Shown: positions 1,613 to 17,195 of the stretch, piece by piece
Layout of the letters: each line of letters opens with the position of its first letter
How positions within the stretch are numbered: the stretch's first letter is position 1
From: Pseudobacteriovorax sp.
GTDB taxonomy: Bacteria > Bdellovibrionota_B > Oligoflexia > Oligoflexales > Oligoflexaceae
Length of the DNA stretch: 17,425 nucleotides
NCBI GenBank assembly: GCA_050293845.1
Contig: JBNKNM010000109.1
Span: 1 to 17,425 of the forward strand
Direction of reading: 5' to 3'
The notes under the pieces: generated by a model
Database searches by the model: none
Told to the model about the DNA's origin: nothing
The model's input: the letters and a program-made list of their open reading frames with translations, nothing else
Translations under genes and position numbers: made by a program

Positions 1613-2107
1613 CTATACGGTTTCACTAGCTTGACTTAATACAGAACGAAAAATGACGCGGCTCAACTCTTCAGCATCTTTTTGACTAAACCCGTTATCA
1701 TGCATCAGACGCTGTACACAGATATCAAAGTATGCCCGGCACTCGATCCCAAAATTACTAGTATCACGCCTGCATTCACCAACTAGAATTAAAGTATTTC
1801 CGCATAAACAGTCACGATGTTCAATAGCGTTACGATTGTGGTTCCTAACGGAGCTTTCTGCCGTTGAGCGTGTTTTGGTGGTTAATGCAATATACTGCTC
1901 ACGATTTTTATATTCCGTTCCACAAGCACGACATACTTTAGGAAAATGATTTTGAAAAGTAGCATCGTCTGTATACATTTGATTGAGGTCAGACTTTGGT
2001 ATAGCTTGACGCTTCACAGCAAGATTGATTTGATTTTCTAAATTCGCAATGAGGCTTTCCATACAACATATTTTAGCCTCAACTTTCTGCTCACACATTG
2101 TGTTCAT
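1613..2107 (-). CDS. Uncharacterised protein with CxxC / CxC motifs (probable Zn-binding domain) and an N-terminal coiled-coil-like segment
   Basis: ORF track 1613..2113. The likelier start is ATG at 2107, 8 nt after AAGGA. Contains FPKVCRACG...RDCLCGNTL...RRDTS..G...R..F. Confidence 0.75.
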   Translation of the reverse strand: MNTMCEQKVEAKICCMESLIANLENQINLAVKRQAIPKSDLNQMYTDDATFQNHFPKVCRACGTEYKNREQYIALTTKTRSTAESSVRNHNRNAIEHRDCLCGNTLILVGECRRDTSNFGIECRAYFDICVQRLMHDNGFSQKDAEELSRVIFRSVLSQASETV

Positions 2108-2396
2108 AATCACAGTCCTTCAGAAAGGATCGATAAGTAACATCTCGTAGTTTGCTTGGAATGACTTAAAGAAAATTTTCTGCACCTGATTTTTTATATA
2201 ATTTCAAAAAGTTAAGCCTACATTTGCACAAGGATTATTCCAAATATAGTATAAATAATTACAACAATAGGGATTCGACGAAAATTCCTAAAAATCTATG
2301 TAACTTAAAGGTATCTCATCTTTTTGGGATTATGCTACCTCCCTTAAATGGCATGTAAGATACTGAATTTACCCCTATAACCTGAGGACTTTTAAT

Positions 2397-3752
2397 GTGA
2401 AATGCTTAAATGTTATTTTTGGTGTCCTAATTGCCATTTATCCAGGTCAAATACTTGCCCAGATCAGAGTTTTAAATTTTGAAACCTTTTTAAGAGCGTA
2501 TCAAGCAAACTCATCAGAATTTATGACACAAAAACACAAGGTTTCGCAAAGTAAGATTAATAAGACAATTTCTGACACCAACTATACAAGTTCATTAAGC
2601 AGCAACTACTTTAGAAATCAGGCAAAAGACGAGCTACAGTACTATAGTTCTGATTCCTATAACATCGTCTTTGAGCAAAAGTTTGGAATGGGAACTTCCA
2701 TCTCTAATACAATTGAAAAACAAGGTTTTGGTGTGCTAACTCAATCGTCACAGTCACTGACCGTATCACAGTCGCTGTGGCGAAATGCATTCGGCCACGA
2801 GACAAAACTTAAGCAACAACTTAGTATGCAAGACCTTGCAGTCGCCCAAATTCAATACCAAAATGCTGCAATCGAAATTTGTGCAAAAGCCTCCGAAACT
2901 TATGTTTCTTTATTAATAAAGCAAGATCAGTTAGATAGAGGTACTACCAGACTTGCAGATTCCTCAAGAATTTTCGATAGGTATAAAAAATTGTACAGTA
3001 GAAATTTGGTTAGGAAAATGGACTTTCTTAATGCGAAAGATAACTATCTGAAGAGTAAGGAGGAGCAGGTAAAATTGGCCTCGGCATTTTACAACGAACT
3101 ATCTTCAATATCAGTTTTAATAAATCAGCCTGTAGATCGACTGGATAATTTTTCCTTAGAACCTCAGCATTACCCTCAATCCCAATCCTCCCTATTAAAA
3201 AGCCCTACCTTAATTGAAACCCAGAAACAAGTGTCAGCCGCAGAAACTTCCTTAGAACTCAGTAGTAATAGTGAACGTTCCGAACTGCAACTCTTTGTGA
3301 GAGGAGAGCGCATTACCAGTGAGTTAAAAAACAACCAAGAGGCAACCGCTTTTGGATTATCGATTGACATACCGATCGCCAATCCCCAGCTAAAAGCTAA
3401 AAGACTTTTAGCTTTAGAGAAACTAAAATTTGCTAAAATTAGCCAAGAAATAGCAAAGCGGCAAACGTTGCAAAATTTTTCTAAATTAGATTCCGAAATA
3501 AAAAATCTAAAGAAAGTACAACAAGAACGATCTCTTCAATTAGAAAATGCGCAAGTAAGACTTCAAGAGGCCAACAGATTACTCAATAACATTCAAATTG
3601 AAATAACTGACTATTTGAGATACAAGCAGGAGCTCAGAACCATCCAAGATACGATCTTTTCTGATAACGCTCGTATCTACCTAAAAAGCGTCCAAGCTCA
3701 AATATTGCACGGTATCTTCCCCCAACATTGCCAAGGTATTTTAGATGAATAA
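2397..3752 (+). CDS. TolC-family outer membrane efflux protein
   Basis: GTG start with GAGGA 8 nt upstream, signal peptide (MKCLNVIFGVLIAIYPGQILA), ~450 aa, duplicated helix/strand architecture (LTVSQSLWRN, FGLSIDIPI), and overlap with the start of an RND gene. Confidence 0.8.
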   Translation: MKCLNVIFGVLIAIYPGQILAQIRVLNFETFLRAYQANSSEFMTQKHKVSQSKINKTISDTNYTSSLSSNYFRNQAKDELQYYSSDSYNIVFEQKFGMGTSISNTIEKQGFGVLTQSSQSLTVSQSLWRNAFGHETKLKQQLSMQDLAVAQIQYQNAAIEICAKASETYVSLLIKQDQLDRGTTRLADSSRIFDRYKKLYSRNLVRKMDFLNAKDNYLKSKEEQVKLASAFYNELSSISVLINQPVDRLDNFSLEPQHYPQSQSSLLKSPTLIETQKQVSAAETSLELSSNSERSELQLFVRGERITSELKNNQEATAFGLSIDIPIANPQLKAKRLLALEKLKFAKISQEIAKRQTLQNFSKLDSEIKNLKKVQQERSLQLENAQVRLQEANRLLNNIQIEITDYLRYKQELRTIQDTIFSDNARIYLKSVQAQILHGIFPQHCQGILDE

Positions 3753-6700
3753 AATTATAGATTTTTTTATTAGGGAAACGTTCATCGTCAACCTGGTCTC
3801 AGGCTTCATTATTATAGTGGGTGGATTCGTATTCTGGCAAATGCACCGTGATATCCAACCTCCTATAGATGTACCCATAGTTTTTATTAACGCCACACTC
3901 CCAGGAGCTAGCCCCGAACAAGTAGAAAAGCAAGTAACTTTTCCGATTGAGGAAGCTCTTCTGGGCCTTCCTGAAATTAAGAAAATAAGTTCCAATTCAG
4001 GTACCAACCAAGCACACCTCAATGTCAGATTAAACACTTCCCCCGATAAATATCAAGACGTTGTAGAAAGTATTCGCGCTCGTCTCGACAGTATGCGATC
4101 CAGCCTCCCTCAAGAGCTAAAAACACTAGAAGTAAGCCCTTTTCTTGTAAATAAAGTCCCATTATTAGATCTCAATGTCATCAATGTTGATATCGAAAAT
4201 ACGGTACACCGTCAGTGGCTTCAAGCTATAAGTCAAAAAATACTATCAGCACCAGGAATTGTGGAAGCTAAGTTAATCATAAGCGATCGGCATATATTTA
4301 TTGATATTGATCGCGACAAGATTCAGGAATTTGAGATTTCTTTAGCCACAGTTCAACAAAAAATTGTAAATTTTTTAGAATTCAGTCCTATTGGCTCCTT
4401 CTATAAAAACGATCATATGGTTGTTGTTGAAATTTCTAATTCCCTAAAATCTCTGGAACCATTGAATAAAATTCCCATACGCAAAGCACTCGACGGTCAT
4501 ACTATTAACCTTGCTGAGATAGCTCAGATCGGGTATAGGAGTATTCGTTCTGATACTATCCGTAGGCTTAATGGAAAAACCTTTGCAAATATTGAAGTCA
4601 AAAAAGATTTGGAATCTGATGCTATAGATCTGAGTGAGCAATTAAATGACATCATTGATGAACTTAACAAAAATGCTCCAGAAGACATATCTATCGAGAT
4701 TTCGTATGATACGTCCCAACTCATCCGTAATCAATTAAAGGTCTTAACTTCCAGTGGTTTTCTAGGCTTTTTTTTGGTTTTTTTGGTCTTGTATTTTTTT
4801 CTTGGTTTCGGTCCAGCTATGATGACTGCTTTAGGATTACCTATTGCCTATCTAGGAACAATTATTTTTTTGGACTGGTTCGGTATAGGTATAGACCTTA
4901 TTTCCATCATTGGTATGATTATAGTTGTCGGTATTCTTGTTGATGATGCTATTATAGTTACTGAACGCTTTACATACATCGTGAGTAAAGGAACACCCGC
5001 CCGACAAGCTGCCCGTGAAGCAGCAGGTTCTCTCATCATTCCCGTATCAGGAACTATACTCACAACCATTGTCGCTTTTAGTCCTATGTTGGTCTTGGAT
5101 ACCGCTATCAGTCGTGTTTTCAAGGCTATTCCCTTAGTCATCATCTTTGCTTTGATTGTCAGCTGGATCGAATGTTTTTTTATACTACCCAATCACTTGC
5201 GTCATATAGTACTAAAACCGCAAAAAGCAGGACACAAGTCCGGGCTAGGAAAAAGATTAATCCAAGTATATGGAAGGAGCTTAAAATGGATCATCAAGTT
5301 AAGATACTTGGTAGTTACTGCTATGCTCCTATTCGCCTTTAGTACTATTTATATCGCTAAAGAAAAAATAATTTTCAATATGGACCTTAACTTTGGTGAT
5401 GTTTCAAAAACTTTGCTAATTGCAGTTAAGCAAGCCAATCGTGCAGAAAGTACTTACAAGCAAATAGAAGCTATTGAAGCATCACTCATTAACAAGGCCA
5501 TAGACTCTGATTTTGAAATTCATACCACAGTCGGACATGCCTGGCTTAATGGTAAAGAGATAAGAGATCCTCGATACGCAACCTTTAGAGTTTCCGGACA
5601 GGTAGATGGAGCTAATATAAAATCCATGCAAGAGAAAATAACTACCTTTATTAAATCGGAAATAGAACAAATCGATAAAAATTCCTTTGATAGGATTGAA
5701 ATTATTGATTCCCAGGGTCAAGATGATATTAACAAAGAAAACTTAGTCTCCATTTCAATAGAAGGTCGTGATCGCGTCTCATTTGATAAAATAGCGGAAG
5801 ATATCGAAGCAGCTATTAAGGACATTGACGGGCTGGAAGCCACCTATCTCAAACTCAACGATGAAGGGGAAGTCTGGCGATTTGCCCCGAATCTTCAAGA
5901 TACCGCACTATATGGAGTGTCTCTCAGAGAGATAGCTCAGCAAATTTCAAGTTTGTTTTCACCAATTGAAATCTCCCAAGGGCGATTCCAAGGCACAAAT
6001 ACCAAAGTTTATACGGAAGTAGTCAAAGATGAACCATGGCGATTTTCTGAGTTAAACAATATTCCGTTATTAACAGGACGAAATACGCAAATTAAACTTG
6101 GACAGGTAGGAAACTGGACAAAGGGTAAAATCGACACCGCTATTTACCATGAGGATGGGCAACGACACTTTTCTTTTGATATTCGTTTTAACCCTAAAAA
6201 GACTGACATTGAGAAATTTACAAAATTGGTGGAAAAACAAATTACTTCTGTTAAATCATCAAATCCAGACTACAGAATACTGGTGGAAAATGCCAACGTC
6301 CAAGCAAGTGAAGCCAAAGAATGGGCAAAAAAAATACTTATAGTGTGTATTGCTTTGATCCTTTTGGTGATGGCTATCATTTTACGATCCCTCATTCAAC
6401 CTCTATTGATAGGACTCAGTATTCCCATTGGTATATTTGGTATAGTATGGGCATTATATTTTCATGGGTATGATCTGACTTTTCTGGGCATCATCGGAGT
6501 TATTGGAGTTGCAGGTGTTGCTGTCAATGACTCCCTGATCATGTTATATGCCATCAATTCTGCTATGAAAGCCAATCCCCTGACCCCCCAAGTTGCAGCT
6601 ATTGAGGCTGCTTGCTCACGATTTAGACCTATATGGCTAACGACTCTTACTACCATTTCAGGAGTTCTGCCTATGGCTTATGGCATCGGAGGCTCCATTG

Positions 6701-6873
6701 GTTATACAGAACCCATGGCATTTTCCATTGGCTGGGGAATTCTAAGTGCCACTTTTGCAGCTTTAGTGATCATTCCTGCCTGTAATTTTATTCTGATCGA
6801 TTTACATAGTATAATTCACTGTTTTCTAAGATGGCTTAAGCCAAAAGCCAAAAGCCAAAAGCCTAAAGCCTAA
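3745..6873 (+). CDS. RND-family efflux permease (AcrB/AcrD/AcrF superfamily)
   Basis: 1042 aa. Motifs LPGASPEQVEKQVTFPIEE, TM4 GILVDDAIIVTE, GTILTTIVAFSPM, GVAVNDSLIM and RFRPIWLTTLTT..G..PMA, with the 1+5 TM pattern duplicated. Confidence 0.95.
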   Translation: MNKIIDFFIRETFIVNLVSGFIIIVGGFVFWQMHRDIQPPIDVPIVFINATLPGASPEQVEKQVTFPIEEALLGLPEIKKISSNSGTNQAHLNVRLNTSPDKYQDVVESIRARLDSMRSSLPQELKTLEVSPFLVNKVPLLDLNVINVDIENTVHRQWLQAISQKILSAPGIVEAKLIISDRHIFIDIDRDKIQEFEISLATVQQKIVNFLEFSPIGSFYKNDHMVVVEISNSLKSLEPLNKIPIRKALDGHTINLAEIAQIGYRSIRSDTIRRLNGKTFANIEVKKDLESDAIDLSEQLNDIIDELNKNAPEDISIEISYDTSQLIRNQLKVLTSSGFLGFFLVFLVLYFFLGFGPAMMTALGLPIAYLGTIIFLDWFGIGIDLISIIGMIIVVGILVDDAIIVTERFTYIVSKGTPARQAAREAAGSLIIPVSGTILTTIVAFSPMLVLDTAISRVFKAIPLVIIFALIVSWIECFFILPNHLRHIVLKPQKAGHKSGLGKRLIQVYGRSLKWIIKLRYLVVTAMLLFAFSTIYIAKEKIIFNMDLNFGDVSKTLLIAVKQANRAESTYKQIEAIEASLINKAIDSDFEIHTTVGHAWLNGKEIRDPRYATFRVSGQVDGANIKSMQEKITTFIKSEIEQIDKNSFDRIEIIDSQGQDDINKENLVSISIEGRDRVSFDKIAEDIEAAIKDIDGLEATYLKLNDEGEVWRFAPNLQDTALYGVSLREIAQQISSLFSPIEISQGRFQGTNTKVYTEVVKDEPWRFSELNNIPLLTGRNTQIKLGQVGNWTKGKIDTAIYHEDGQRHFSFDIRFNPKKTDIEKFTKLVEKQITSVKSSNPDYRILVENANVQASEAKEWAKKILIVCIALILLVMAIILRSLIQPLLIGLSIPIGIFGIVWALYFHGYDLTFLGIIGVIGVAGVAVNDSLIMLYAINSAMKANPLTPQVAAIEAACSRFRPIWLTTLTTISGVLPMAYGIGGSIGYTEPMAFSIGWGILSATFAALVIIPACNFILIDLHSIIHCFLRWLKPKAKSQKPKA

Positions 6874-7102: not shown

Positions 7103-7603
7103 ATGAAGTTTTTTCTAAGTGTAATTGCTTTTTGCGGCTTATTTTCTAACACAGTCTTCGCAAACCAGGTCATGGTGAACACTGATTTAGTTGAGATTCT
7201 TAGTGAGCCACAGGATGACTTAATCCACACCGTTTCGCTAAATCTGGATGAGAATGGGGATATAGTGGAAGTCATTCGCACAAGCGAAGAAGATGAGCTG
7301 GTCATACCAAGTGAAGACCTTATTGAAGGGGAAGTCGTGCTTGCCAGATCCCAAGACAGAGATGCTGTATTTTTGAGCTGTCCGGGCTGTACTGCTGACT
7401 TAGGAGGTGAATTAGTCGTGCGTTATATTTCCAACGGTATTTTTAATACTTATGATGAATTACACATGAACCTTGTCCGCACAGGCAACGATTGGACACT
7501 ATTCTCTGTAGATGGAGAAGAAGTTATTAATCTGCGCTTGGTTTCACGAACCATCTTCGGCCAAGTCATAGGCATTCGAGAAATCCAAATCAATTCTTAT
7601 TAA
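7103..7603 (+). CDS. Secreted acidic hypothetical protein, probably beta-rich
   Basis: Signal peptide MKFFLSVIAFCGLFSNTVFA, AAGGGA upstream, D/E-rich composition, one CxxC (CPGC). No family recognised. Confidence 0.75.
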   Translation: MKFFLSVIAFCGLFSNTVFANQVMVNTDLVEILSEPQDDLIHTVSLNLDENGDIVEVIRTSEEDELVIPSEDLIEGEVVLARSQDRDAVFLSCPGCTADLGGELVVRYISNGIFNTYDELHMNLVRTGNDWTLFSVDGEEVINLRLVSRTIFGQVIGIREIQINSY

Positions 7604-7628: not shown

Positions 7629-9380
7629 TTACTCTTTATAGTCGGCCAGTGAAATAACCTTAGGCTTCCACTTACCTATTTTAGCTTGGCGCCAAGAAAT
7701 AGTAACTGGCTGGTTATCAAAGGCGACATTTTTAATGAGACGAGATCTCAACTTCACTCTGTCTGGAGAAGAAGGTTCGTAGATTGCTCGCTCCACATCA
7801 CTAGGTGTAAATAGATCTAAAGTTAATCTATCTCTTTGCAAGATATCAAAATAACCATCACCTAATTCATGATATTTCAAGTCAATTTTTTTCAATACCC
7901 AGTAATCGAAATAATCATCGCTGGTATGGAGCAAGTACTTTTTTGTCACCCAATCAATGCGACCAATAAGCAATTCCGGATTTTTCTTGAGAGTTTCTAA
8001 AATCTCTTCCCACATCCTGACAATCTCGTGACTTTCAATGGCGACTGTTTGTTCCTTTAAATAAAGCTTCGCCCGTTTCAAATACCATTCTTGGATTTCA
8101 AGCGCTGTCAGTTTTCCTCCCTGAGTTAGCTGGACTTTGGCACTAAGGCTAAGATCTCTGGTAATTGTACGCAGCGCAGATATAGGATGAGTTAATCGGG
8201 GAGCATCCTTCAAATAATGATCGTTCGCCATTCTTACAATGAGGGAGGTAACTCCAACTTTCAAAAACTCGGCTATATGGGCTCTATTGGAGTCTGAAAA
8301 GGCAACTTGTAATCTCTGGGATTTACGAAGCAATTGTGTCCAAGCACTGGTGCGAAAAAGAAAAAGCTCCCAAATAGCTAACTCATACTCCTTGATGAGG
8401 TTACCACAATCAAACAGTGGCTTGTCCATTCTATGAATGGACGTTCGCTTGTAGCTATTGATTGCTTGAGATTTTTCTGAAAAAATAAAACTACCATCTT
8501 TCAGTAAACTCCCAGCTCCGGTATATATAATGCGAGAAATGATGTGAGCATGAATCTGCTCTTGCTGCGAACGAAAAGCGAATGCGTTATAAATCATAAT
8601 AAGTGGCTTATAACTCAGCCAAAACAGGGGATAAAATACTGAGTACTCCAACATCAGAAGGAACTCTTCTGTATCGTCAGTTTCAAAATTAAATCGTCCC
8701 AGTCCCGTTTTCATCATACCCTTAATCGTTGGCATAGCAAAAATTTTGTCGGTAACTCTGACTAGAACTTGCTTCGATCCCACCAAAACAATCATTTCTA
8801 AAAAAACTTTGACTGAAAAAATCAATAAAATAAATGGAATCAAACATATCAAATATACCAGCTTCAGGCTGATGGCTATGGGAATATAGGAAATGAGCAA
8901 GACTTGCATTACCCCGTAACGCATCCCAGAAGCTAAGTCACTATCATAGTTTTCCTGACTGCCGTAGGTATTTCCTTCGTAGTCGCGGCAATTTTTTATG
9001 AGACTTAACTCACCTTCAAACCCATCCATAGCCATCATTTCTGCAGCGATGGGGGTTGCTTTTTTTAAAAGTTCTTCTTGGGCACGTTGATAAAGAACAA
9101 GCTCATGGGAAGAATGACATTCAGGGGTAGCGCACTCTATGAGCCCTTTTCTCAAGCTCTGGGGATGGTGTTCGTAATAAATAGCCCCACCATTTTGAAC
9201 AAAAAATTGATCCTGAATAAAGCTTCGTTTTCCCGGCTTTGTCTTGACAATGGTCCGAATGGCTTGCGATAGGTAATCAAAGATAACTTTATTGCCAGGA
9301 TGCTCAGAAAAAGCCTTGGGAACAAAGCGAACGGCTAATTCTGTTTCCTGCCCTAAAAGATAGCTTTTACTACTCGCCAC
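7629..9380 (-). CDS. PafA/Dop-family (Pup ligase-like, carboxylate-amine ligase fold) protein with a hydrophobic membrane insertion
   Basis: Ordered match to PafA motifs: LGQETE (GIETE), FVQNGGAIYYE (FLRNGARLYLD), ECATPEC (EYATAEC), LIKN..D..GNTYGSQENY (LFKNNTD..GNSYGCHENY), SRIIYTGAG, RLQVAFSDSN (RLHVIVGDSN), LKVGVTSL, IDWVTK, IDLKYHEL, R..LR..LI, TISW. Start is GTG 9380 (AAGGTGG upstream) or TTG 9383 as in the ORF track. Confidence 0.9.
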   Translation of the reverse strand: MASSKSYLLGQETELAVRFVPKAFSEHPGNKVIFDYLSQAIRTIVKTKPGKRSFIQDQFFVQNGGAIYYEHHPQSLRKGLIECATPECHSSHELVLYQRAQEELLKKATPIAAEMMAMDGFEGELSLIKNCRDYEGNTYGSQENYDSDLASGMRYGVMQVLLISYIPIAISLKLVYLICLIPFILLIFSVKVFLEMIVLVGSKQVLVRVTDKIFAMPTIKGMMKTGLGRFNFETDDTEEFLLMLEYSVFYPLFWLSYKPLIMIYNAFAFRSQQEQIHAHIISRIIYTGAGSLLKDGSFIFSEKSQAINSYKRTSIHRMDKPLFDCGNLIKEYELAIWELFLFRTSAWTQLLRKSQRLQVAFSDSNRAHIAEFLKVGVTSLIVRMANDHYLKDAPRLTHPISALRTITRDLSLSAKVQLTQGGKLTALEIQEWYLKRAKLYLKEQTVAIESHEIVRMWEEILETLKKNPELLIGRIDWVTKKYLLHTSDDYFDYWVLKKIDLKYHELGDGYFDILQRDRLTLDLFTPSDVERAIYEPSSPDRVKLRSRLIKNVAFDNQPVTISWRQAKIGKWKPKVISLADYKE

Positions 9381-9519
9381 CAAGATCCACCTTAGCCGAT
9401 TTTACATATTCTTCCGCCTTTGTCTGTGCATCATCCTGAACCGCTCGCAGTGCAAGAGACAAGTTATTGTTATCACATGGTGATTCGACGAACAGAGCTG
9501 TCAGTGTGTTAGATTTCAT
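9370..9519 (-). CDS. Pup/UBact-like small modifier protein, 49 aa, C-terminal GGE (not in the ORF track)
   Basis: Manual translation gives MKSNTLTALFVESPCDNNNLSLALRAVQDDAQTKAEEYVKSAKVDLGGE*. AAGGAG lies 6 nt before the ATG. The C-terminus resembles Pup (..AEDFVRAYVQKGGQ/E), and its last codons overlap the start of the PafA-like gene. Confidence 0.85.
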   Translation of the reverse strand: MKSNTLTALFVESPCDNNNLSLALRAVQDDAQTKAEEYVKSAKVDLGGE

Positions 9520-9525
9520 AGCGGA

Positions 9526-9531
9526 CTCCTT
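9526..9531 (-). promoter_or_regulatory. Shine-Dalgarno sequence of the Pup-like ORF
   Basis: Minus strand reads AAGGAG-tccgct-ATG. Confidence 0.8.
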
Positions 9532-9690
9532 CGAGTAAGACAATGTTCAACCTAACTATCGGTCGTAAATGTCGGGCACAATAGCTTTTTTTCCAGGATA
9601 CAAGGCCTTACCCATCTACCAGTAACGTAAATATCTAATTTAACAAGCTTCCAAGGTTTGTCACCATATTACAAAAAAATATTCTTTAGT

Positions 9691-9724
9691 TAAAGTAAAA
9701 GGCGCTATAGCGCCTTTTACTTTA
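9691..9724 (-). terminator. Perfect 34-bp palindrome acting as the intrinsic terminator of the collagen-like gene
   Basis: TAAAGTAAAAGGCGCTA|TAGCGCCTTTTACTTTA. It includes the TAA stop (9722-9724) and reads as a GC core plus T-tract on either strand. Confidence 0.8.
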
Positions 9725-12415
9725 TCTCTCGGTGAATGCCTCACCCGCAGCACTGCTAACCTCATGAATATATTTCAATATAATCAGCAAGTTAGAGTTT
9801 GTTGCGGCTGCATCTGTCACCCTAGCTTCGATATTGCCATTGGCAAAACGGATATCGACACCCTGTCCGCTATTTAGGGGGCGCGTAATACCTTCAGCAT
9901 CCGCGAAGGTTCCCGATATTTGCTGGATGGTTTCCGGTCCATCCCAAGGCTGCAAGGTAACAAAACTGCCAACTGTACTTGGAGCTTGACTTGAAATCAT
10001 TTGGCTCACCACAGGAGATCCCGCAATCATTGCAGTAGGCTGATAATATTGAGGTCCAATTTTAAGCAAAGGACCTTCGCTGCATATATACAAAGAATTT
10101 GTAGCTGTGCAGGGAGCGATATCACCGTCTTGAGCAAAGTTACCAGCCGGGCCTTCAGGACCCTGTGGTCCCGTCTCTCCTCGCGGGCCACGGTCTCCTT
10201 TGGGACCCACATCTCCCTGTGGTCCTGCAGGCCCTATTTGGCCCGACTCACCACGTGGACCCCGTTCTCCTGGAGGACCTGGCTCCCCTTGGGGACCTTC
10301 GAGACCCTCGGGACCTTCGGGACCCACTGGTCCTCTAGGACCTTCGGGACCTGCAGGACCATCGAAACCTATTTCACCTTTGGGTCCCCGTGGGCCTTCG
10401 GGACCCTCAGGACCTTCGGGACCTTCCAACCCTTCGGGACCTTGTGGTCCCCTTGGACCCACCGGTCCGGCTGGACCCTGCTCCCCAGGAGGTCCAACAT
10501 CACCTAACGGACCAGCAGGACCTACGGGACCTTCGAGGCCTGCTGGCCCTGTATCACCAATGTCACCTTTAGCACCTGGCGGACCTTCGGGGCCTGGCTC
10601 TCCTACGTATCCGCGAGGACCTTGAGGACCAGGGTCTCCCTGATCACCCTGAGGACCTTGCAATCCCGTTTCCCCTTGCTCTCCCTGGGGGCCAGCAGGG
10701 CCAGCAGGTCCAGTAGGGCCAATTTTTCCCTCAGGACCGCGAGGGCCTATAGGACCTTCGGGACCTTCGGGACCATCGAGACCTTGCAATCCACGAGGTC
10801 CCACGGCCCCCTCATCACCTTTAATGCCAGGATCTCCTGTATCTCCCTTTGGCCCTGCGGGACCAATGGGACCTTCATCACCTTTTTCTCCTTGAGGACC
10901 TTCAGGACCTTCTAGACCTATCAAACCTTGGGGGCCAGCAGGACCCTGATCACCAGGATCTCCTTTAGGACCACGTTCACCAATAGATCCCTGGGGACCT
11001 TCAGGACCCGGCAAGCCTTCAGGCCCTGGAGGACCATCAGCACCGATATCACCTCGGGGACCCACGGGACCTTGAAGTCCTTGGGGGCCTGGTAAGCCTT
11101 CATCTCCAGCGGGACCAGCGGGACCTGTGGGACCAATGGGGCCCTCAGGGCCTTCGGGACCTTCAGGACCTTCAGGACCTGCGTCACCCTCCGGACCAAT
11201 GAAACCACGCGGACCTTGCAATCCGACATCTCCTTTTTCCCCTTGAGGACCGACCGGTCCGCGATCTCCCGTATCACCTTTTGGACCCTGCAATCCCTGG
11301 AGACCTTGGAGTCCGATGTCTCCTTGGGGTCCTATAGGGCCTTCAGGCCCCTCATCACCTTTTTCCCCAGGCTCTCCTTGCAGACCTTCATATCCTTGGG
11401 GACCACGAGGACCTTGCGGACCTTGCGGCCCCACATCTCCTTGAGGACCTATGGGACCCACAGGCCCCCCATCCCCGGTGTCACCCTTGTCTCCAATGGC
11501 ACCTTGCGGACCTTGCGGACCAACCTCCCCTTGATATCCCCGGGGCCCTATTTCTCCTTGGGGGCCACGATCTCCTGGATCTCCCTGATAACCTCGGGGT
11601 CCGGTAAGCCCCCTCGGACCTCGTGGCCCCCTGGGACCAAGAGGGCCCTCGATACCCTGCGGACCCTGAGGCCCTAAGGGTCCTGTAGCACCAGTCTGCC
11701 CCCGATTCCCCCGCGGGCCTGCTGGTCCTTGAGGTCCTTCGGGGCCTTCTGTCCCACGAGGTCCCGAGGGGCCAGGGATACCCTCTGCTAATAAACTTCC
11801 CAGCGGCACTGTGTGAGAAATATTGCCACTTGTTAAACGTAATCCAACCTTGCGATCATTGACTTCATCCTGGGATATAGTTCGCACCTCGCCTAAAAAA
11901 AGCAGGGTCGAACAGGAACTATTGACGGTGATGGGCGTTTCATCCCCCATCCATAATATGTCCCCGGTTTCTCGGTTTACGATAGAGACTCCTAACGACA
12001 GGGACTGGGTACAGTTTGCAATACCACGACAAGGACATATCACTCCTAAATCAACGATTGCGGACTTTTTGAGAGGATCAACTTCAGCTACTACTGAGCC
12101 CAAAGACCTTGGTTCAAAAACATCTACAATATCGTTGTTGTTTAGATCAAACACAACTAGTTCTGTATCAGCAAAAATATTACCGGATACAGTTACAATG
12201 TCATCATTTTCAGCAATGTCCAAACCCTGGAGGTCCAACACAGCGGCAGTATCGGGAGTTCCGTTAACAAAAGCCTTTATAGCTGCCTCAACAGTCATTG
12301 CTGTTTGATTTGCAACGGTGAATTCAAAGCTATAAATCTTTTCTGCTGCTAACAGTGGGGGATCGCTGCGACCCAAGCACCACAAGATAGCAGAGAGCCA
12401 TATTAACATTCTCAA
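9722..12415 (-). CDS. Secreted collagen-like protein: N-terminal globular domain, long Gly-X-Y helix, C-terminal globular domain
   Basis: The ORF track starts at 12529, but AGGAGGAG lies 7 nt before TTG at 12415 (or ATG 12409), giving a signal-peptide-like N-terminus ([19 protein letters not shown]). About 897 aa. Confidence 0.9.
10145..11782 (-). repeat. Collagen Gly-X-Y repeat: 182 consecutive triplets (9-bp periodicity)
   Basis: 1638 nt from GIP-GPS-GPR to GPQ-GPE-GPA with no break in Gly periodicity. Dominated by [12 protein letters not shown] and locally GC-rich. Confidence 0.95.
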
Positions 12416-12561
12416 GGCTCTACTCCTCCTGGTAAAATGTACGTCTAAAAAAGGTTTTAGGTATACTATCCAAGACAGATCAGCTAAGCAATAAAGTATA
12501 GGTAAATAGAATGTTCGTAGAGTAGACAAATTAAGACGGGGAGTGTCTTTGCTTACTCTGT

Positions 12562-13029
12562 TTAGGATTTTTTATACTGGCAGTTTTTCACCTGACAAAC
12601 ACCAAATAGATCTAAGGAGTGGTGGGTTAGCTTAATACCATAGGTTGCTGCAATTTCTTCCTGCAACATTTCAATTTTGTCGTTTTCAAATTCGATGACA
12701 CGACTACATGTCGTACAAATCAAATGATCGTGATGCTGATTAGGTTTATTGAGCTCAAACACCGCCCGTCCATCAGCAAACTGTTTCTGTTCTACTAAAC
12801 CCGCATCTTTTAGAAGATTAAGAGTACGATAGATAGTAGCCATTCCGGCATTACAATCCTGCTCTTTTGCATATTGATGCAGTTCTTCTGCTGCCACATG
12901 ATCGTTCATTTCGATAAAGTATTCAATAACCTGATTCCGCTGTTTACTGTGCTTTAGTTTCGCCTTAGCAAGATATTCATTAAGTCGTGACCAAAACCAT
13001 TCAAATTCATTTGTCTGCTTTCTTACCAT
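12562..13029 (-). CDS. Fur-family metal-responsive transcriptional regulator (Fur/Zur/PerR family)
   Basis: [47 protein letters not shown]....C. ATG at 13029 with AGGT 7 nt upstream. Confidence 0.93.
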
Positions 13030-13072
13030 CAATATGACCTACGCAATAACAACATACTCAACCACATTTCTT

Positions 13073-13146
13073 AGTATAGGCCAGATTAAAAACGCCGTCT
13101 ATTAAAGATGACCAAGCTTGTCAAGATGCAAAGTTTTGGATAAAAC
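13073..13146. promoter_or_regulatory. Candidate back-to-back sigma70-type promoters for the Fur-family gene (-) and the CDF gene (+)
   Basis: Minus strand: TAGACG (13101-13096)-17 nt-TATACT (13078-13073). Plus strand: TTGTCA (13118-13123)-17 nt-TAAAAC (13141-13146). Pattern match only. Confidence 0.45.
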
Positions 13147-13194
13147 CACAGCGTACCGAAATCGACGATCCCGATAACTTTGAAAGTTGCTGCT

Positions 13195-14082
13195 ATGGCC
13201 TCTCATCACCACCATGAACACCATATTGATAATGACTCATCTATTAAAAGGCTCTTTTTTGCTTTCCTCTTGAATCTAAGCTTTGCAGTCGTTGAATTTA
13301 TTGGTGGCATTATATTTCAAAGCATGTCCGTGGTCGCCGATGCTATTCATGACCTAGGTGATTCCCTTAGCTTAGGGCTCGCCCTGATACTACAAAAGAA
13401 GTCTCAAAAGAGTGCCACAAGACGTTTTACTTATGGCTATAAAAGGTACTCCACCGCTGGTGCACTCATTAACAGCTTAATTCTAATTGTCGGGTCAGCG
13501 ATCGTTGTTTGGGAGTCCATTCCTCGTTTTTTTCAGACGAACGAATTACCAGATTACCAAGGCATGATGGGATTAGCCTTGATAGGAATAGCTGTGAACT
13601 CTTTAGCCGCATGGAAGCTATCTGTGGGACACAGTCACAACGAGAAAGTCATTAGCCTGCACTTGCTGGAAGATATTCTAGGCTGGGTAGCCGTTCTTGT
13701 AGGAAGTATTCTCATTCACTTCTTTGAATGGCTTTGGATTGATCCCTTACTTGCCTGTCTTATTGCGCTATTTATCTTAAAAAATGTTTGGCATAGTTTT
13801 ACGACAACCGCACGCATTTTCTTACAATCTATTCCCGACAATATCGATATGGATCATATAGAAGACGCCATTAGTAATATAGAAGGGGTAAAGCAATTAA
13901 CCAATATCCATGCTTGGACATTAGATGGTGACGACCATGTTTGCACTTGCACTATCGTGCCGAGCGTTCCCAGCAGCTCCTATTCCGCAGTAAAAGCTCA
14001 AATTCGCAGTTACTTACGACAATACCGCTTCAAACATGTCACCATTGAAGTTGCCACAAATTCCGATGAAGTTTGCCATTAA
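13195..14082 (+). CDS. Cation diffusion facilitator (CzcD/ZitB-type Zn/Cd/Co exporter)
   Basis: His-rich N-terminus (SHHHHEHH), ADAIHDLGD (TM2 HxxxD), FTYGYKR, HLLED (TM5 HxxxD), WIDPL, C-terminal HAWTLDG..HVTIE. ATG 13195 is preferred over TTG 13180. Confidence 0.93.
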   Translation: MASHHHHEHHIDNDSSIKRLFFAFLLNLSFAVVEFIGGIIFQSMSVVADAIHDLGDSLSLGLALILQKKSQKSATRRFTYGYKRYSTAGALINSLILIVGSAIVVWESIPRFFQTNELPDYQGMMGLALIGIAVNSLAAWKLSVGHSHNEKVISLHLLEDILGWVAVLVGSILIHFFEWLWIDPLLACLIALFILKNVWHSFTTTARIFLQSIPDNIDMDHIEDAISNIEGVKQLTNIHAWTLDGDDHVCTCTIVPSVPSSSYSAVKAQIRSYLRQYRFKHVTIEVATNSDEVCH

Positions 14083-14489
14083 TCTCCTATGGAAGCATAG
14101 TGAGGCAGCTTCACACCTGCAAATGAATTAGCCGTTTTACTTTATTTAGGGTTTTACGCGATACATTACTCAAAATCGTGCTTCCGATAATTTAGTTCCA
14201 TAAAGTCGGGAAATTGAACGCCAGCAAAATTGACACCGTAAAAATAGTTACGTCATTTTTCATTTTTTTACAGATTTTTATTTTATTTTTTTCCTTTATG
14301 AGATATTCCTAAATAGCGAGTCGCATTTTGATCTTTTTTATAAATTTCATTGATATTTATAAAAGAGAGATTAAAAAAAGACTCCTTAAATGATGCAGAG
14401 TTTTCCAAACTGTGCATTTTTTTAAACGCCATTCTAGCCTGACCGGCCAGATAAGGCGAGCTTCAAGTTCACTTCAACGAGGTATTAAC

Positions 14490-17195
14490 ATGAGTACAAA
14501 ATTTGGTGACGCTTCAATAGCGGGAGCCCTGATCCTGGCGATGACAGGTGGTGGCTATGCCCAAGGAACACAAAAAGATTCCATAGAAAAAGTGGAGAAA
14601 ATTTCCGTTGTTGGCTCTAGGATTAAAAGGATCGACATCGAAGGAACAACACCCATAAAGATTATCGACAGAGAAGAGATAGAAAATAGCGGTCTTGTTA
14701 GTATAGGCGACATTATTCGAAAATCCGCTCTCGCTAGTCCTACAGGAAACTTTTCAGGATCTTCCAGATTTATTGCGGCTGGCTCTTCTAGCATCGACTT
14801 ACTCGGCCTTGGTAGTGATCGCACGTTGATTCTATTAAATGGCAAACGCTTACCACCATCAGCAAATGGTGGACTAAATTCAGTTAACATTGACAATATT
14901 CCCACAGGATTAGTGGAGCGTATTGAAATCCTTTCAGGAGGGTCTTCAGCCGTTTATGGAGCTGATGCTGTTGGGGGTGTTGTTAACGTTGTTCTTAAAA
15001 AGGATATGAGTGGTTCTGAAGTATCTGCCTTCAGATCCGTTACTAATGAAGGTGGCGGCGATGAAACAGAGCTAAGCGCTTCCTATGGTGGCAAGCTAAC
15101 AGATAAATTAAGCCTAACGTTTTCCCTTGGCTATCGGGGTCGTTCTCGTCTTTTTAAAAACAATCGTGATCTTTCGTTCGGAGAAGCGCCACGGGATTTT
15201 ACTGTAACAAACCCACCTGAAGGCACTTATAGCTATAGACCCATTGATTTGGACGCTACCGACAGTATATTTCTTGACTGGCAACCCAGTAGCAACTGCC
15301 CCGAGCAGAACCGTGTAGCGACTGTTCCCACAAGCCCTAATAATGTTTACTGTGCAGGTCCGCGAAGCGGCCCGCCTACAGAATTAATTCCCCGAAAAGA
15401 AGAATTCCACGGCTCTCTCTACCTAGACTATGACATCTCTGATGATTGGAAGCTTAGCGGCCTAGTAAACGGCAGTAGCAGCTATAACTCGTCTAACACT
15501 GGAAATTTCTTAAGCTATATCGATAGTCCTTACGACAACGCGAATGTTCTGGTCACTGGCGATAGGGCCCGCGAATTAGGAATAGATGTTTCTGACGATA
15601 TCGAATATGTGCAACTTATCACCAAAAGTTTTGAATCTCCTGATAGAAAATCCCGCGCCCGCAATACTTCTTTCGGCGGCATCGCGAATCTTGAGGGAAG
15701 CTTGGCCAATGACTGGAATATTGAATTCAGCAGTTCCTACTTTAGAACTAAAGGAACCCGCGAAGGTGTTAACTATATCAACTCTGATAAACTCTATAAC
15801 ATCGTCGTCAATCCTAACGACGAAAACGGCGCGAACCCTGCTTGGCTTGCCATTGACCCCAACCGTGACAACAGCCTGCTCTTAGACGTATTTGATGGTT
15901 TAAAATCTAGTGAGATCAATAGTCATCTCTCTGCAGATGCCTTTCTTAGCAATGAATTCTTTGCATTGCCGGGTGGCCTCGTTTCCGCAGGCTTTGGTGC
16001 CTCTGTTACAAATGAGACCTACAATCAAATAGCTGACCAGAAAGACCAGCAATTCAATGCTGTCAACACTCCTGTTTTTACGGGATCTTTCGCTTCAGAA
16101 GGCAAAGGGGATAGGCAAGTCGGCGCACTCTTTGGTGAGTTCCTAGCTCCTGTAACAAGCCAAATTGATGTTGAAGGTGCCCTACGTTTTGATTCCTACA
16201 GCGACTTTGGTGATTCCCTCAACTTTGGCTTAGGAACTAAAGCCGAACTTATTCCAGGCTTAGCTGTCCGTGGACGCGTCGCCTCCAGCTATAAAGCCCC
16301 ACCCCTTAGTTTCATCCACAGAAAAGGTTCTGGAGGTTACTTAACTATCCGCGATACCGTCAATTGTCAGAGAGAGAACGATGCTGGCCGAACATGTGAT
16401 CCATCCTCTCCTACTCGCCAAGTGCTCGTAGCCGATTCCGGCAATAAGGACCTTAATCCCGAAACAGGTCTTAGTCAGACTCTTGGACTCATCTTTGAAC
16501 CCAGCTCAAACTTAAACCTAATCGGTGACTTTTATGCTATTGATTTAAAAGACACCTATCAACAAGATGACATTCAGGAGCTAGCTGATAAGTGGTACAA
16601 GCAAAACCCCGGCAATACACAAGGTGGCCAAATCGATGACAATGGTATAGAGGTTGATAAGGACGGTGTTATTACACAAATCCTCAGACCCTATCGAAAC
16701 TTAGGGAAAATCAGAGTTAGAGCGACCTCTCTGCAAGCCAATTTCTCTCAGAAGTTTGGAGGGCTAAAACTCGGAGCCAGCTCAAGATATTTCCGGATGT
16801 TATCCTATAAGGTCCAAGAAACTGTAGACGCTCCTGTGAGAGAGCAGGTTGGCTACGATGGTGTTCCAGATTGGAGGGTTAGTAATCAGATAAACTTTGG
16901 CTTTGGAAGCCACACCATTACTCTTTACTCTAGTACTATTGCAGGCCAAAGTATCGATCCAGAACTAGAAACAGCTGCTAGTAAGGATACCCATATAGAT
17001 AAGTACACCGAATATGATGTGAGCTACAACTGGGATACACCTTGGGACTCCAACCTAGTATTAGGTGTGAATAATGTTCTGAACACTATTGGAGGAATCG
17101 ATAATGGTACCTTCAATAAATCAGAGAGTATTAATACTAGCCTATATAGCTACAGTGGGCGAACATTCTTCGCAAGGTTGACCCAGAGATTTTAA
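14490..17195 (+). CDS. TonB-dependent outer membrane receptor
   Basis: GAGGT before ATG 14490, signal peptide ending GYA, TonB-box region EKISVVGSRIKR, plug motifs LGSDRTLILLNGKR and IP..LVERIEILSGGSSAVYGADAVGGVVNVVLKK, LNPETG, GVNNVLN...GRTFF, C-terminal Phe. Confidence 0.95.
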   Translation: MSTKFGDASIAGALILAMTGGGYAQGTQKDSIEKVEKISVVGSRIKRIDIEGTTPIKIIDREEIENSGLVSIGDIIRKSALASPTGNFSGSSRFIAAGSSSIDLLGLGSDRTLILLNGKRLPPSANGGLNSVNIDNIPTGLVERIEILSGGSSAVYGADAVGGVVNVVLKKDMSGSEVSAFRSVTNEGGGDETELSASYGGKLTDKLSLTFSLGYRGRSRLFKNNRDLSFGEAPRDFTVTNPPEGTYSYRPIDLDATDSIFLDWQPSSNCPEQNRVATVPTSPNNVYCAGPRSGPPTELIPRKEEFHGSLYLDYDISDDWKLSGLVNGSSSYNSSNTGNFLSYIDSPYDNANVLVTGDRARELGIDVSDDIEYVQLITKSFESPDRKSRARNTSFGGIANLEGSLANDWNIEFSSSYFRTKGTREGVNYINSDKLYNIVVNPNDENGANPAWLAIDPNRDNSLLLDVFDGLKSSEINSHLSADAFLSNEFFALPGGLVSAGFGASVTNETYNQIADQKDQQFNAVNTPVFTGSFASEGKGDRQVGALFGEFLAPVTSQIDVEGALRFDSYSDFGDSLNFGLGTKAELIPGLAVRGRVASSYKAPPLSFIHRKGSGGYLTIRDTVNCQRENDAGRTCDPSSPTRQVLVADSGNKDLNPETGLSQTLGLIFEPSSNLNLIGDFYAIDLKDTYQQDDIQELADKWYKQNPGNTQGGQIDDNGIEVDKDGVITQILRPYRNLGKIRVRATSLQANFSQKFGGLKLGASSRYFRMLSYKVQETVDAPVREQVGYDGVPDWRVSNQINFGFGSHTITLYSSTIAGQSIDPELETAASKDTHIDKYTEYDVSYNWDTPWDSNLVLGVNNVLNTIGGIDNGTFNKSESINTSLYSYSGRTFFARLTQRF

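Follow-up and report, generated by a model that had tools for sequence, protein, structure and literature searches.

The tag-ligase locus

Contig JBNKNM010000109.1 of the Pseudobacteriovorax sp. assembly GCA_050293845.1 (6.68 Mb, 96.4% complete) was analysed over its whole length of 17,425 nucleotides, referred to below as the window. On its reverse strand it carries a gene for a protein of 584 amino acids that matches the Pup-ligase family profile PF03136 (7629..9383, (-)), preceded by a small gene for a Pup-like tag (9370..9519, (-)), and the present work concerns this gene pair and, in particular, a long hydrophobic insertion inside the catalytic domain of the ligase. Two candidate starts were noted for the ligase gene, i.e., a TTG at 9383 or an in-frame GTG at 9380. 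The PF03136 profile covered residues 52-567 and scored 235.3 bits, above its gathering score (cut-off of 25), and the protein missed the cut-offs of both the PafA equivalog model (TIGR03686; 166.8 vs. 551.3 bits) and the Dop equivalog model (TIGR03688; 143.3 vs. 492.3 bits).

The tag gene encodes 49 amino acids that end in GGE directly before the stop codon, and it overlaps the start of the ligase gene by 11-14 nt. An AGGAG ribosome-binding site (9526..9530, (-)) is located 6 nt ahead of its ATG, and from the layout of the sequence the tag gene is predicted to be translationally coupled to the ligase gene. The same pairing was found well beyond the window. Among 241 genome stretches with a tblastn-confirmed relative of the ligase, 80 were kept as related loci, labelled as Oligoflexia/Bdellovibrionota, Myxococcota, Leptospirales, Acidobacteriota, Verrucomicrobiota, Planctomycetota and others. 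These were scanned for tag frames of at least 30 codons with a G-[EQ] end and a stop no more than 400 nt ahead of, or 90 nt past, the point where the ligase match starts; as each frame was counted from one stop to the next, the lengths are upper bounds. Such a G[EQ]-ending frame was present upstream of the ligase in 79 of the 80 loci, and was absent from the searched span in one (L024). The end was GGE in 77, the exceptions being L070 and L074, with tags ending in Glu-Gly-Glu or Asp-Gly-Glu. Over their last 45 residues the tags could be aligned, with a GGE that never varies and Ala, Tyr and Val positions that hardly do.

Fold and active site of the ligase

An AlphaFold2 model of the ligase, built on a 79-sequence alignment, reached a mean predicted local distance difference test (pLDDT) score of 93.5 and a predicted template modelling score (pTM) of 0.92. 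Its top Foldseek matches were the PafA-Pup structure 4bjr and the Dop structures 4b0r and 7oxy (E ~1e-26). The TM-score was 0.72-0.83 when normalised on the target and ~0.65 on the query, the lower query value being what a matching core plus a non-matching insert would give. On the strength of this model, the 584-aa protein is predicted to have the carboxylate-amine ligase fold of PafA and Dop.

Most core residues are common to the ligase and the canonical sequences, among them G11, E13 and E15 of the GhExE motif, E83, E88, N131, D134, E144 and R357, to which the nearly invariant R284 can be added. The ENY motif (residues 144-146; 8946..8954, (-)) forms the end of the core strand ahead of the insert, and its E144 shows no variation among the 31 sequences of an alignment of family members (A1). 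The core fold resumes at the SRIIYTGAG motif (residues 283-291; 8511..8537, (-)), in which G289 and G291 are invariant in the alignments.

Three positions set the insert-bearing ligases apart. The catalytic Asp of the PafA/Dop family is conservatively replaced by Glu at E71 (9171..9173, (-)); all 27 insert-bearing sequences have Glu here and all four canonical ones Asp, and the position is invariant in a second alignment (A2). Similarly, Q143 (8955..8957, (-)), just before ENY, and Q359 (8307..8309, (-)), in the position of the R-L-H motif, are each Gln in 27/27 insert-bearing vs. His in 4/4 canonical sequences. Directly after E71 there is an extra loop of eight residues.

The Dop-loop itself has no room in the ligase. 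Residues 63-148 of the query align to residues 86-160 of Dop, leaving 62 vs. 85 residues on the N-terminal side, so that the region up to the aligned block is 23 residues shorter in the ligase than in Dop; the Dop-loop of M. smegmatis Dop is given as 37 residues in PMC7947786.

Extent and conservation of the insertion

The insertion comprises 136 residues (147-282; 8538..8945, (-)) between ENY and SRIIYTGAG. The earlier note had counted about 135 residues here, against about 20 in canonical PafA, and both figures held: four canonical PafA/Dop-type sequences (P0081, P0082, P0085 and P0087) have 20 residues at this site in A1. The span of 8574..8936 that it had assigned to the insertion corresponds to residues 150-270 and falls inside the interval found here. 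The four canonical rows were deliberately taken from the bottom of the match list, and the remaining 27 of the 31 A1 sequences have 113-147 residues at the site.

A word-indexed search supplied a pool of 87 matches, and an exhaustive search returned 2753 proteins at E<=0.001, 300 of them at E<=1e-30. The insertion measured 113-147 residues (median of 130) in 79 of 79 near-full-length relatives, which are chosen good matches to an insert-bearing query from which fragments and most split alignments were dropped. In a quick, unrooted IQ-TREE search with only the four canonical rows for comparison, one branch with a Shimodaira-Hasegawa-like approximate likelihood ratio test (SH-aLRT) value of 100 parted the 27 insert-bearing sequences from the four canonical ones. 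From its spread over the relatives and this split, the insertion can be taken as an old, clade-defining feature, and neither a local accident nor a sequencing artefact.

The layout of the insertion is conserved across the 79 relatives. It opens with G153 and L156, followed by an aromatic residue and then R160 (Lys or Arg in 82%), and P168 is kept in 66 of the 79 (84%). The 41 residues from 161 to 201 are almost free of charge (~1% Lys/Arg and 0.6% Asp/Glu across the relatives) and are flanked by arginine-rich segments. The loop that follows is variable in the family, rich in both charges and often starts with Pro-Pro and several Arg. Further on, prolines are found at 252, 256 and 260 (P256 in 43/79 and P260 in 48/79 relatives), and a basic cluster at 271-275 is Lys or Arg in ~50% across the relatives.

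Hydrophobicity and possible topology

Both of the apolar stretches described in the earlier note are present, at residues 158-202 and 241-270, the second being only moderately hydrophobic. Hydrophobic block 1 (residues 157-203; 8775..8915, (-)) is the main membrane-spanning candidate. Its maximum on the Kyte-Doolittle scale with a 19-residue window (KD19) is 2.64, and 30 windows score at least 1.6. For comparison, the same maximum is 3.01 for the AcrB-type pump and 2.15 for the CDF transporter encoded in the window, vs. 0.98, 0.68 and 1.21 for the MetRS-like protein, Fur and the TonB-dependent receptor, which are soluble or outer-membrane proteins. Block 1 is therefore as hydrophobic as the true membrane proteins of the window, and far beyond chance. 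This property extends through the family, with a median KD19 of 2.72 and values of at least 1.93 in 79/79 relatives.

Block 1 is followed by a charged connecting loop (residues 204-240; 8664..8774, (-)) with six Lys/Arg and six Asp/Glu, and by hydrophobic block 2 (residues 241-270; 8574..8663, (-)), a proline-rich return helix with a KD19 maximum of 1.02. The family median for block 2 is 1.72, and 50 of the 79 relatives reach at least 1.6. On an insertion free-energy scale, applied without positional weighting, one clearly favourable core was found, at ~169-195.

In the AlphaFold2 model the insert forms helices at 153-165, 167-201 and 235-268, outside the PafA/Dop core and with pLDDT mostly above 90, while the connecting loop is modelled at pLDDT 65-79 with short helices at 204-214 and 218-228. 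The model of a relative with 37% identity and a 114-residue insert (P0029) likewise has long helices at 166-210 and 226-259. Both models thus contain two long helices of 34-45 residues, joined by a short charged segment with one or two short helices, and in both the second long helix is followed by the canonical one that runs into the SR..TGAG strand. Taken literally, these models would describe a two-helix stalk that crosses the membrane twice, its charged segment lying on the opposite side, although AlphaFold2 ignores membranes.

The insert is flanked by the halves of one catalytic domain. As this domain depends on ATP and on a tag that is made by ribosomes, it must be cytoplasmic, and the number of crossings is even or zero in each case. 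Possible topologies are two passes, four passes or a monotopic hairpin.

Model of the tag-ligase complex

In modelled complexes of tag and ligase, the interaction prediction score from aligned errors (ipSAE) was 0.87 in each of three runs, vs. 0.00 for the best of three controls. At least 83% of the contacts agreed between runs, and the pLDDT of the tag was at least 72. Of 157 solved complexes, 116 attain the tool's mark, as do 2 of 215 mismatched pairs, counts that apply only roughly here, since own alignments were used; moreover, the pass may stem from likeness to the solved PafA-Pup and Dop-Pup complexes.

The modelled contacts join tag residues 35-49 to ligase residues 15-21, 71-81 and 129-143 and to the C-terminal helices 473-520, i.e., to the active-site strands and the C-terminal groove. 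E71 touches the tag in this model, and residues of the insert are absent from the confident tag contacts. The assignment of the tag to Pup by sequence homology was tried and rejected, with Pfam, genome and PDB-profile searches all negative (see below). In functional terms the tag would nevertheless count as a Pup, being small, ending in G-[EQ], lying beside the ligase gene and, in the model, placing its C-terminal part in the groove.

Genome content, distribution and transcriptional setting

The genome from which the window derives contains a single PF03136 match, so that no second PafA or Dop gene was found in it. It has no PF00227 match, and hence neither a 20S proteasome nor HslV was found, and the best score with the Mpa model (TIGR03689) was 143.7 vs. 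a cut-off of 504.75. Five other genomes with the module (two Oligoflexia metagenome-assembled genomes, Plesiocystis pacifica, Chondromyces apiculatus and a Leptonemataceae metagenome-assembled genome) also have one PF03136 match each. None of the five exceeded the cut-off of the bacterial 20S beta model, a weak negative in that no control genome passed either. Within the class to which the window belongs, the distribution is patchy, with the ligase gene in 3 of 61 sampled genomes, including the present one.

Among 3535 clustered open reading frames of 81 loci there was no conserved third gene. Next in size to the ligase cluster are two (68 and 60 loci) made up of antisense frames that lie within the ligase gene, and the one after these occurs in 16 of the 81 loci. 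A Fur-like gene is found in five loci and a collagen-like gene in three, and only the window, L002 and L003 have both of them upstream.

Between the upstream collagen-like gene and the tag gene lies a hairpin followed by a T-run (9691..9724, (-)), just after the end of the former and likely its terminator. The hairpin has a folding energy of -21.7 kcal/mol and a z-score of -6.9, and none of 200 shuffles was as stable. A scan with a terminator consensus did not list it, and returned four terminator-like sites vs. 2.6 expected, a number not above chance. From the position of the hairpin and T-run after the collagen-like gene, the tag and ligase genes appear to form a separate unit of two genes. 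A promoter-like site (GTGACA-16 nt-TAAATT, preceded by TG; 9637..9664, (-)) also lies ahead of the tag gene, such sites being no commoner in the region than by chance (7 vs. 6.8 expected).

A probable membrane-anchored tagging module

Taken together, we read the insertion as the built-in membrane anchor of a Pup-type ligase that belongs to a proteasome-independent tagging module, and put the probability of this reading at roughly 0.72. The helices of the insert would enter the inner membrane and exit on the same, cytoplasmic side, in two or four passes or as a monotopic hairpin, and would hold the catalytic cradle at the membrane's inner face. There, the ligase would activate the gamma-carboxylate of the terminal Glu of the tag with ATP, as PafA does, and couple the tag to lysine residues of proteins that lie in or at the membrane. 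A deamidase would be unnecessary, since the tag has Glu at its end from the outset. The outcome of tagging would be independent of a proteasome, and may be regulatory or consist in a hand-over to another protease. The earlier note had proposed an anchor in the inner membrane; the predictions side with it (the almost charge-free stretch, its Arg flanks, their conservation and the modelled helices), but as an idea it is not new, having already been put forward in 2008 (PMC2588565).

Several observations weigh against this reading. Pfam Pup (PF05639) matched none of 78 tag sequences, a search of the genome with the Pup model gave no match at E up to 10, and no Pup chain in the PDB was retrieved with a profile of the tag. 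Three positions without variation among the canonical sequences are changed in 27/27 insert-bearing ones (Asp to E71, His to Q143 and His to Q359), so that PafA-like chemistry is assumed for the insert-bearing ligases. Neither a substrate nor a conserved third gene turned up. As for the membrane, block 2 is weakly hydrophobic in the ligase itself (KD19 of 1.02), the free-energy scale finds no favourable window in it, and the orientation of the active site towards the bilayer is one that we infer. The connecting loop, moreover, has a family median of five Lys/Arg per 31 residues and a Lys-plus-Arg fraction of 0.158 vs. 0.133 in the catalytic domain. By the positive-inside rule, loops rich in Lys and Arg favour the cytoplasmic side. 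Such a loop would be cytoplasmic and the insert would then form two in-in hairpins, which speaks against the two-pass layout. Two in-in hairpins would also come nearer to the count of four segments given by Iyer et al. (see below).

Other explanations can be set against the same data. The insert might not enter the membrane at all; the enzyme would then be soluble, with the insert as a buried bundle of helices or as an oligomer interface. AlphaFold2 does pack its helices together with high confidence, and block 2 is only moderately hydrophobic. However, the 41-residue stretch with ~1% Lys/Arg and 0.6% Asp/Glu in 79 sequences has arginine clusters on both sides and a hydrophobicity equal to that of the AcrB and CDF transporters of the window, and charge-poor, Arg-bracketed helices of 34-45 residues, as modelled, look more like a membrane anchor, which makes a soluble insert very improbable. 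A second alternative concerns the reaction: the enzyme could be mainly a hydrolase of the depupylase kind, or catalyse some other ligation, with the insert only localising it. The Glu in place of the catalytic Asp and the Gln in place of both His in 27/27 insert-bearing sequences would fit this, as would scores far below both equivalog cut-offs and the Dop-like positions near E71 (a His after the catalytic residue, and T-P-E) when compared with Table 1 of PMC7947786. Yet the ligase is the sole family member in its genome, it has no room for a Dop-loop, and a tag that ends in Glu is ligation-ready, with nothing to remove, and we therefore think such a role unlikely. PafA is reported also to remove or transfer Pup (PMC5358908), so that one enzyme could do both.

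The same anchor could also serve a different acceptor, i.e., phosphatidylethanolamine or another lipid-linked amine of the membrane, with the tag becoming lipid-anchored in the manner of Atg8-phosphatidylethanolamine. The insert departs from the core two or three residues past the metal-binding E144 and rejoins it just ahead of R284, which should bring the active site close to the bilayer; the active-site substitutions are specific to the clade, and the genome lacks a detectable proteasome, with neither a protein substrate nor a reader known for the tag. On the other hand, no result points to a lipid, the tag groove and tail are modelled as in PafA-Pup, and no lipid-metabolism gene is conserved beside the tag-ligase pair. 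To our knowledge, moreover, every characterised member of the family acts on protein lysines or on the glutamine of Pup, which counts against a lipid acceptor. We hold this variant to be quite improbable, and give marginally less credence again to its more specific form, in which a lipid amine of the membrane receives the GGE tag and E71, Q143 and Q359 reflect the different acceptor. In Atg8/LC3 lipidation, an E1/E2/E3 thioester cascade joins the tag to phosphatidylethanolamine. The two systems would be alike only if the lipid acceptor holds, each then joining a small tag with a Gly-rich end to an amine at the membrane; the enzymes and their chemistry are unrelated, the ligase being of the ATP-dependent carboxylate-amine type. 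If true, the lipid acceptor would make the module a bacterial, ATP-driven counterpart of Atg8 lipidation.

Comparison with known systems

Pupylation has been studied almost entirely as a proteasome route in actinobacteria. A membrane-anchored Pup-type ligase would extend what is assumed to be the same chemistry to proteasome-less bacteria, in a module that is apparently tied to the membrane and is widespread. The copy in the window adds no new principle to this, and offers it as a clean two-gene unit.

The closest precedent is the computational study of Iyer, Burroughs and Aravind from 2008 (PMC2588565). As described there, the Pup ligases of Plesiocystis and Rhodopirellula carry an insertion with four transmembrane (TM) segments immediately C-terminal to core strand 4; they are unlinked to proteasome genes and stand beside a Pup gene and a gene that encodes a membrane protein, and a probable anchor at the cytoplasmic face and pupylation of membrane-associated proteins were proposed. 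In these terms, the TM-insert ligases of Plesiocystis pacifica and Rhodopirellula baltica resemble the present one in the insert after the ENY strand, the adjacent gene with a G[EQ] end and the lack of proteasome linkage. The Plesiocystis gene was also recovered here, as locus L056, with 36% identity over residues 9-583 and a place in the same clade, and it has LWLYR, AFAFRRVRR and SRPVLTGAG motifs in common with the ligase around and inside the insert. Two differences stand out against that study: four TM segments are counted there, whereas the AlphaFold2 models show two long helices, and the loci there include a membrane-protein gene, whereas the pair here has as neighbours a collagen-like gene, set apart by the likely terminator, and a convergent gene that encodes 166 amino acids. 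The linked membrane-protein gene is indeed absent from the window. By its sequence, the module would be of the membrane-anchored, proteasome-independent kind predicted in 2008 for Plesiocystis and Rhodopirellula. A literature search, with subscription journals largely outside its reach, gave no experimental work on a Pup ligase with a membrane anchor; its yield was limited to the 2008 paper, essays in which that paper is cited, and studies of soluble PafA and Dop.

With PafA (4b0t, 4bjr) the ligase has in common the fold, the GhExE, ENY and TGAG motifs and the absence of a Dop-loop, as well as, in the model, the predicted path of the C-terminal helices and tail of the tag into the active site. 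PafA differs in being soluble, with 20 residues at the insert site (136 in the ligase), in having Asp for E71 and His for Q143 and Q359, and in working with Mpa and the 20S proteasome, neither of which was found in the genome of the window. With Dop (4b0r, 5lrt, 7oxy) the ligase shares the fold, the family, a His after the catalytic residue and the T-P-E motif. Unlike Dop, it has no Dop-loop and is the sole family member in its genome, and its tag, which ends in Glu, would require no deamidation. Finally, Hecht et al. (PMC7947786) describe a single-copy planctomycete homologue of Dop and PafA that served as the outgroup of a tree, and this position fits the intermediate residue pattern of the insert-bearing ligase.

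Neighbouring genes

The gene convergent with the ligase gene (7103..7603, (+)) encodes a protein of 166 amino acids with a hydrophobic, signal-peptide-like N-terminus; this protein has no Pfam or NCBIfam match and was found in none of the 80 related loci. Further to the left, a putative open frame, also of 166 amino acids (1613..2113, (-)), has no Pfam match. Between the two lies a pair of efflux genes (2397..6873, (+)), in which an outer-membrane efflux gene overlaps the gene of an AcrB-type RND pump by 8 nt (3745 vs. 3752), with no periplasmic adaptor gene seen between them. This pair also stands beside the ligase gene in locus L002.

On the other side, a metal-homeostasis cluster (12562..17195) consists of a Fur-family regulator (12562..13032, (-)), a CDF cation-efflux transporter (13180..14082, (+)) and a TonB-dependent receptor (14412..17195, (+)). 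The collagen-like gene upstream of the tag (9722..12529, (-)) encodes a collagen-repeat protein of 935 amino acids with a hydrophobic N-terminus, matched by Pfam Collagen with 278 bits. This neighbour and the ~40% guanine-plus-cytosine (GC) content had prompted the idea of a Legionella-type effector, which was dropped, the best named homologues being those of Pseudobacteriovorax and Oligoflexus. The collagen-repeat gene raises the local GC content to ~0.60 vs. ~0.40 elsewhere in the window.

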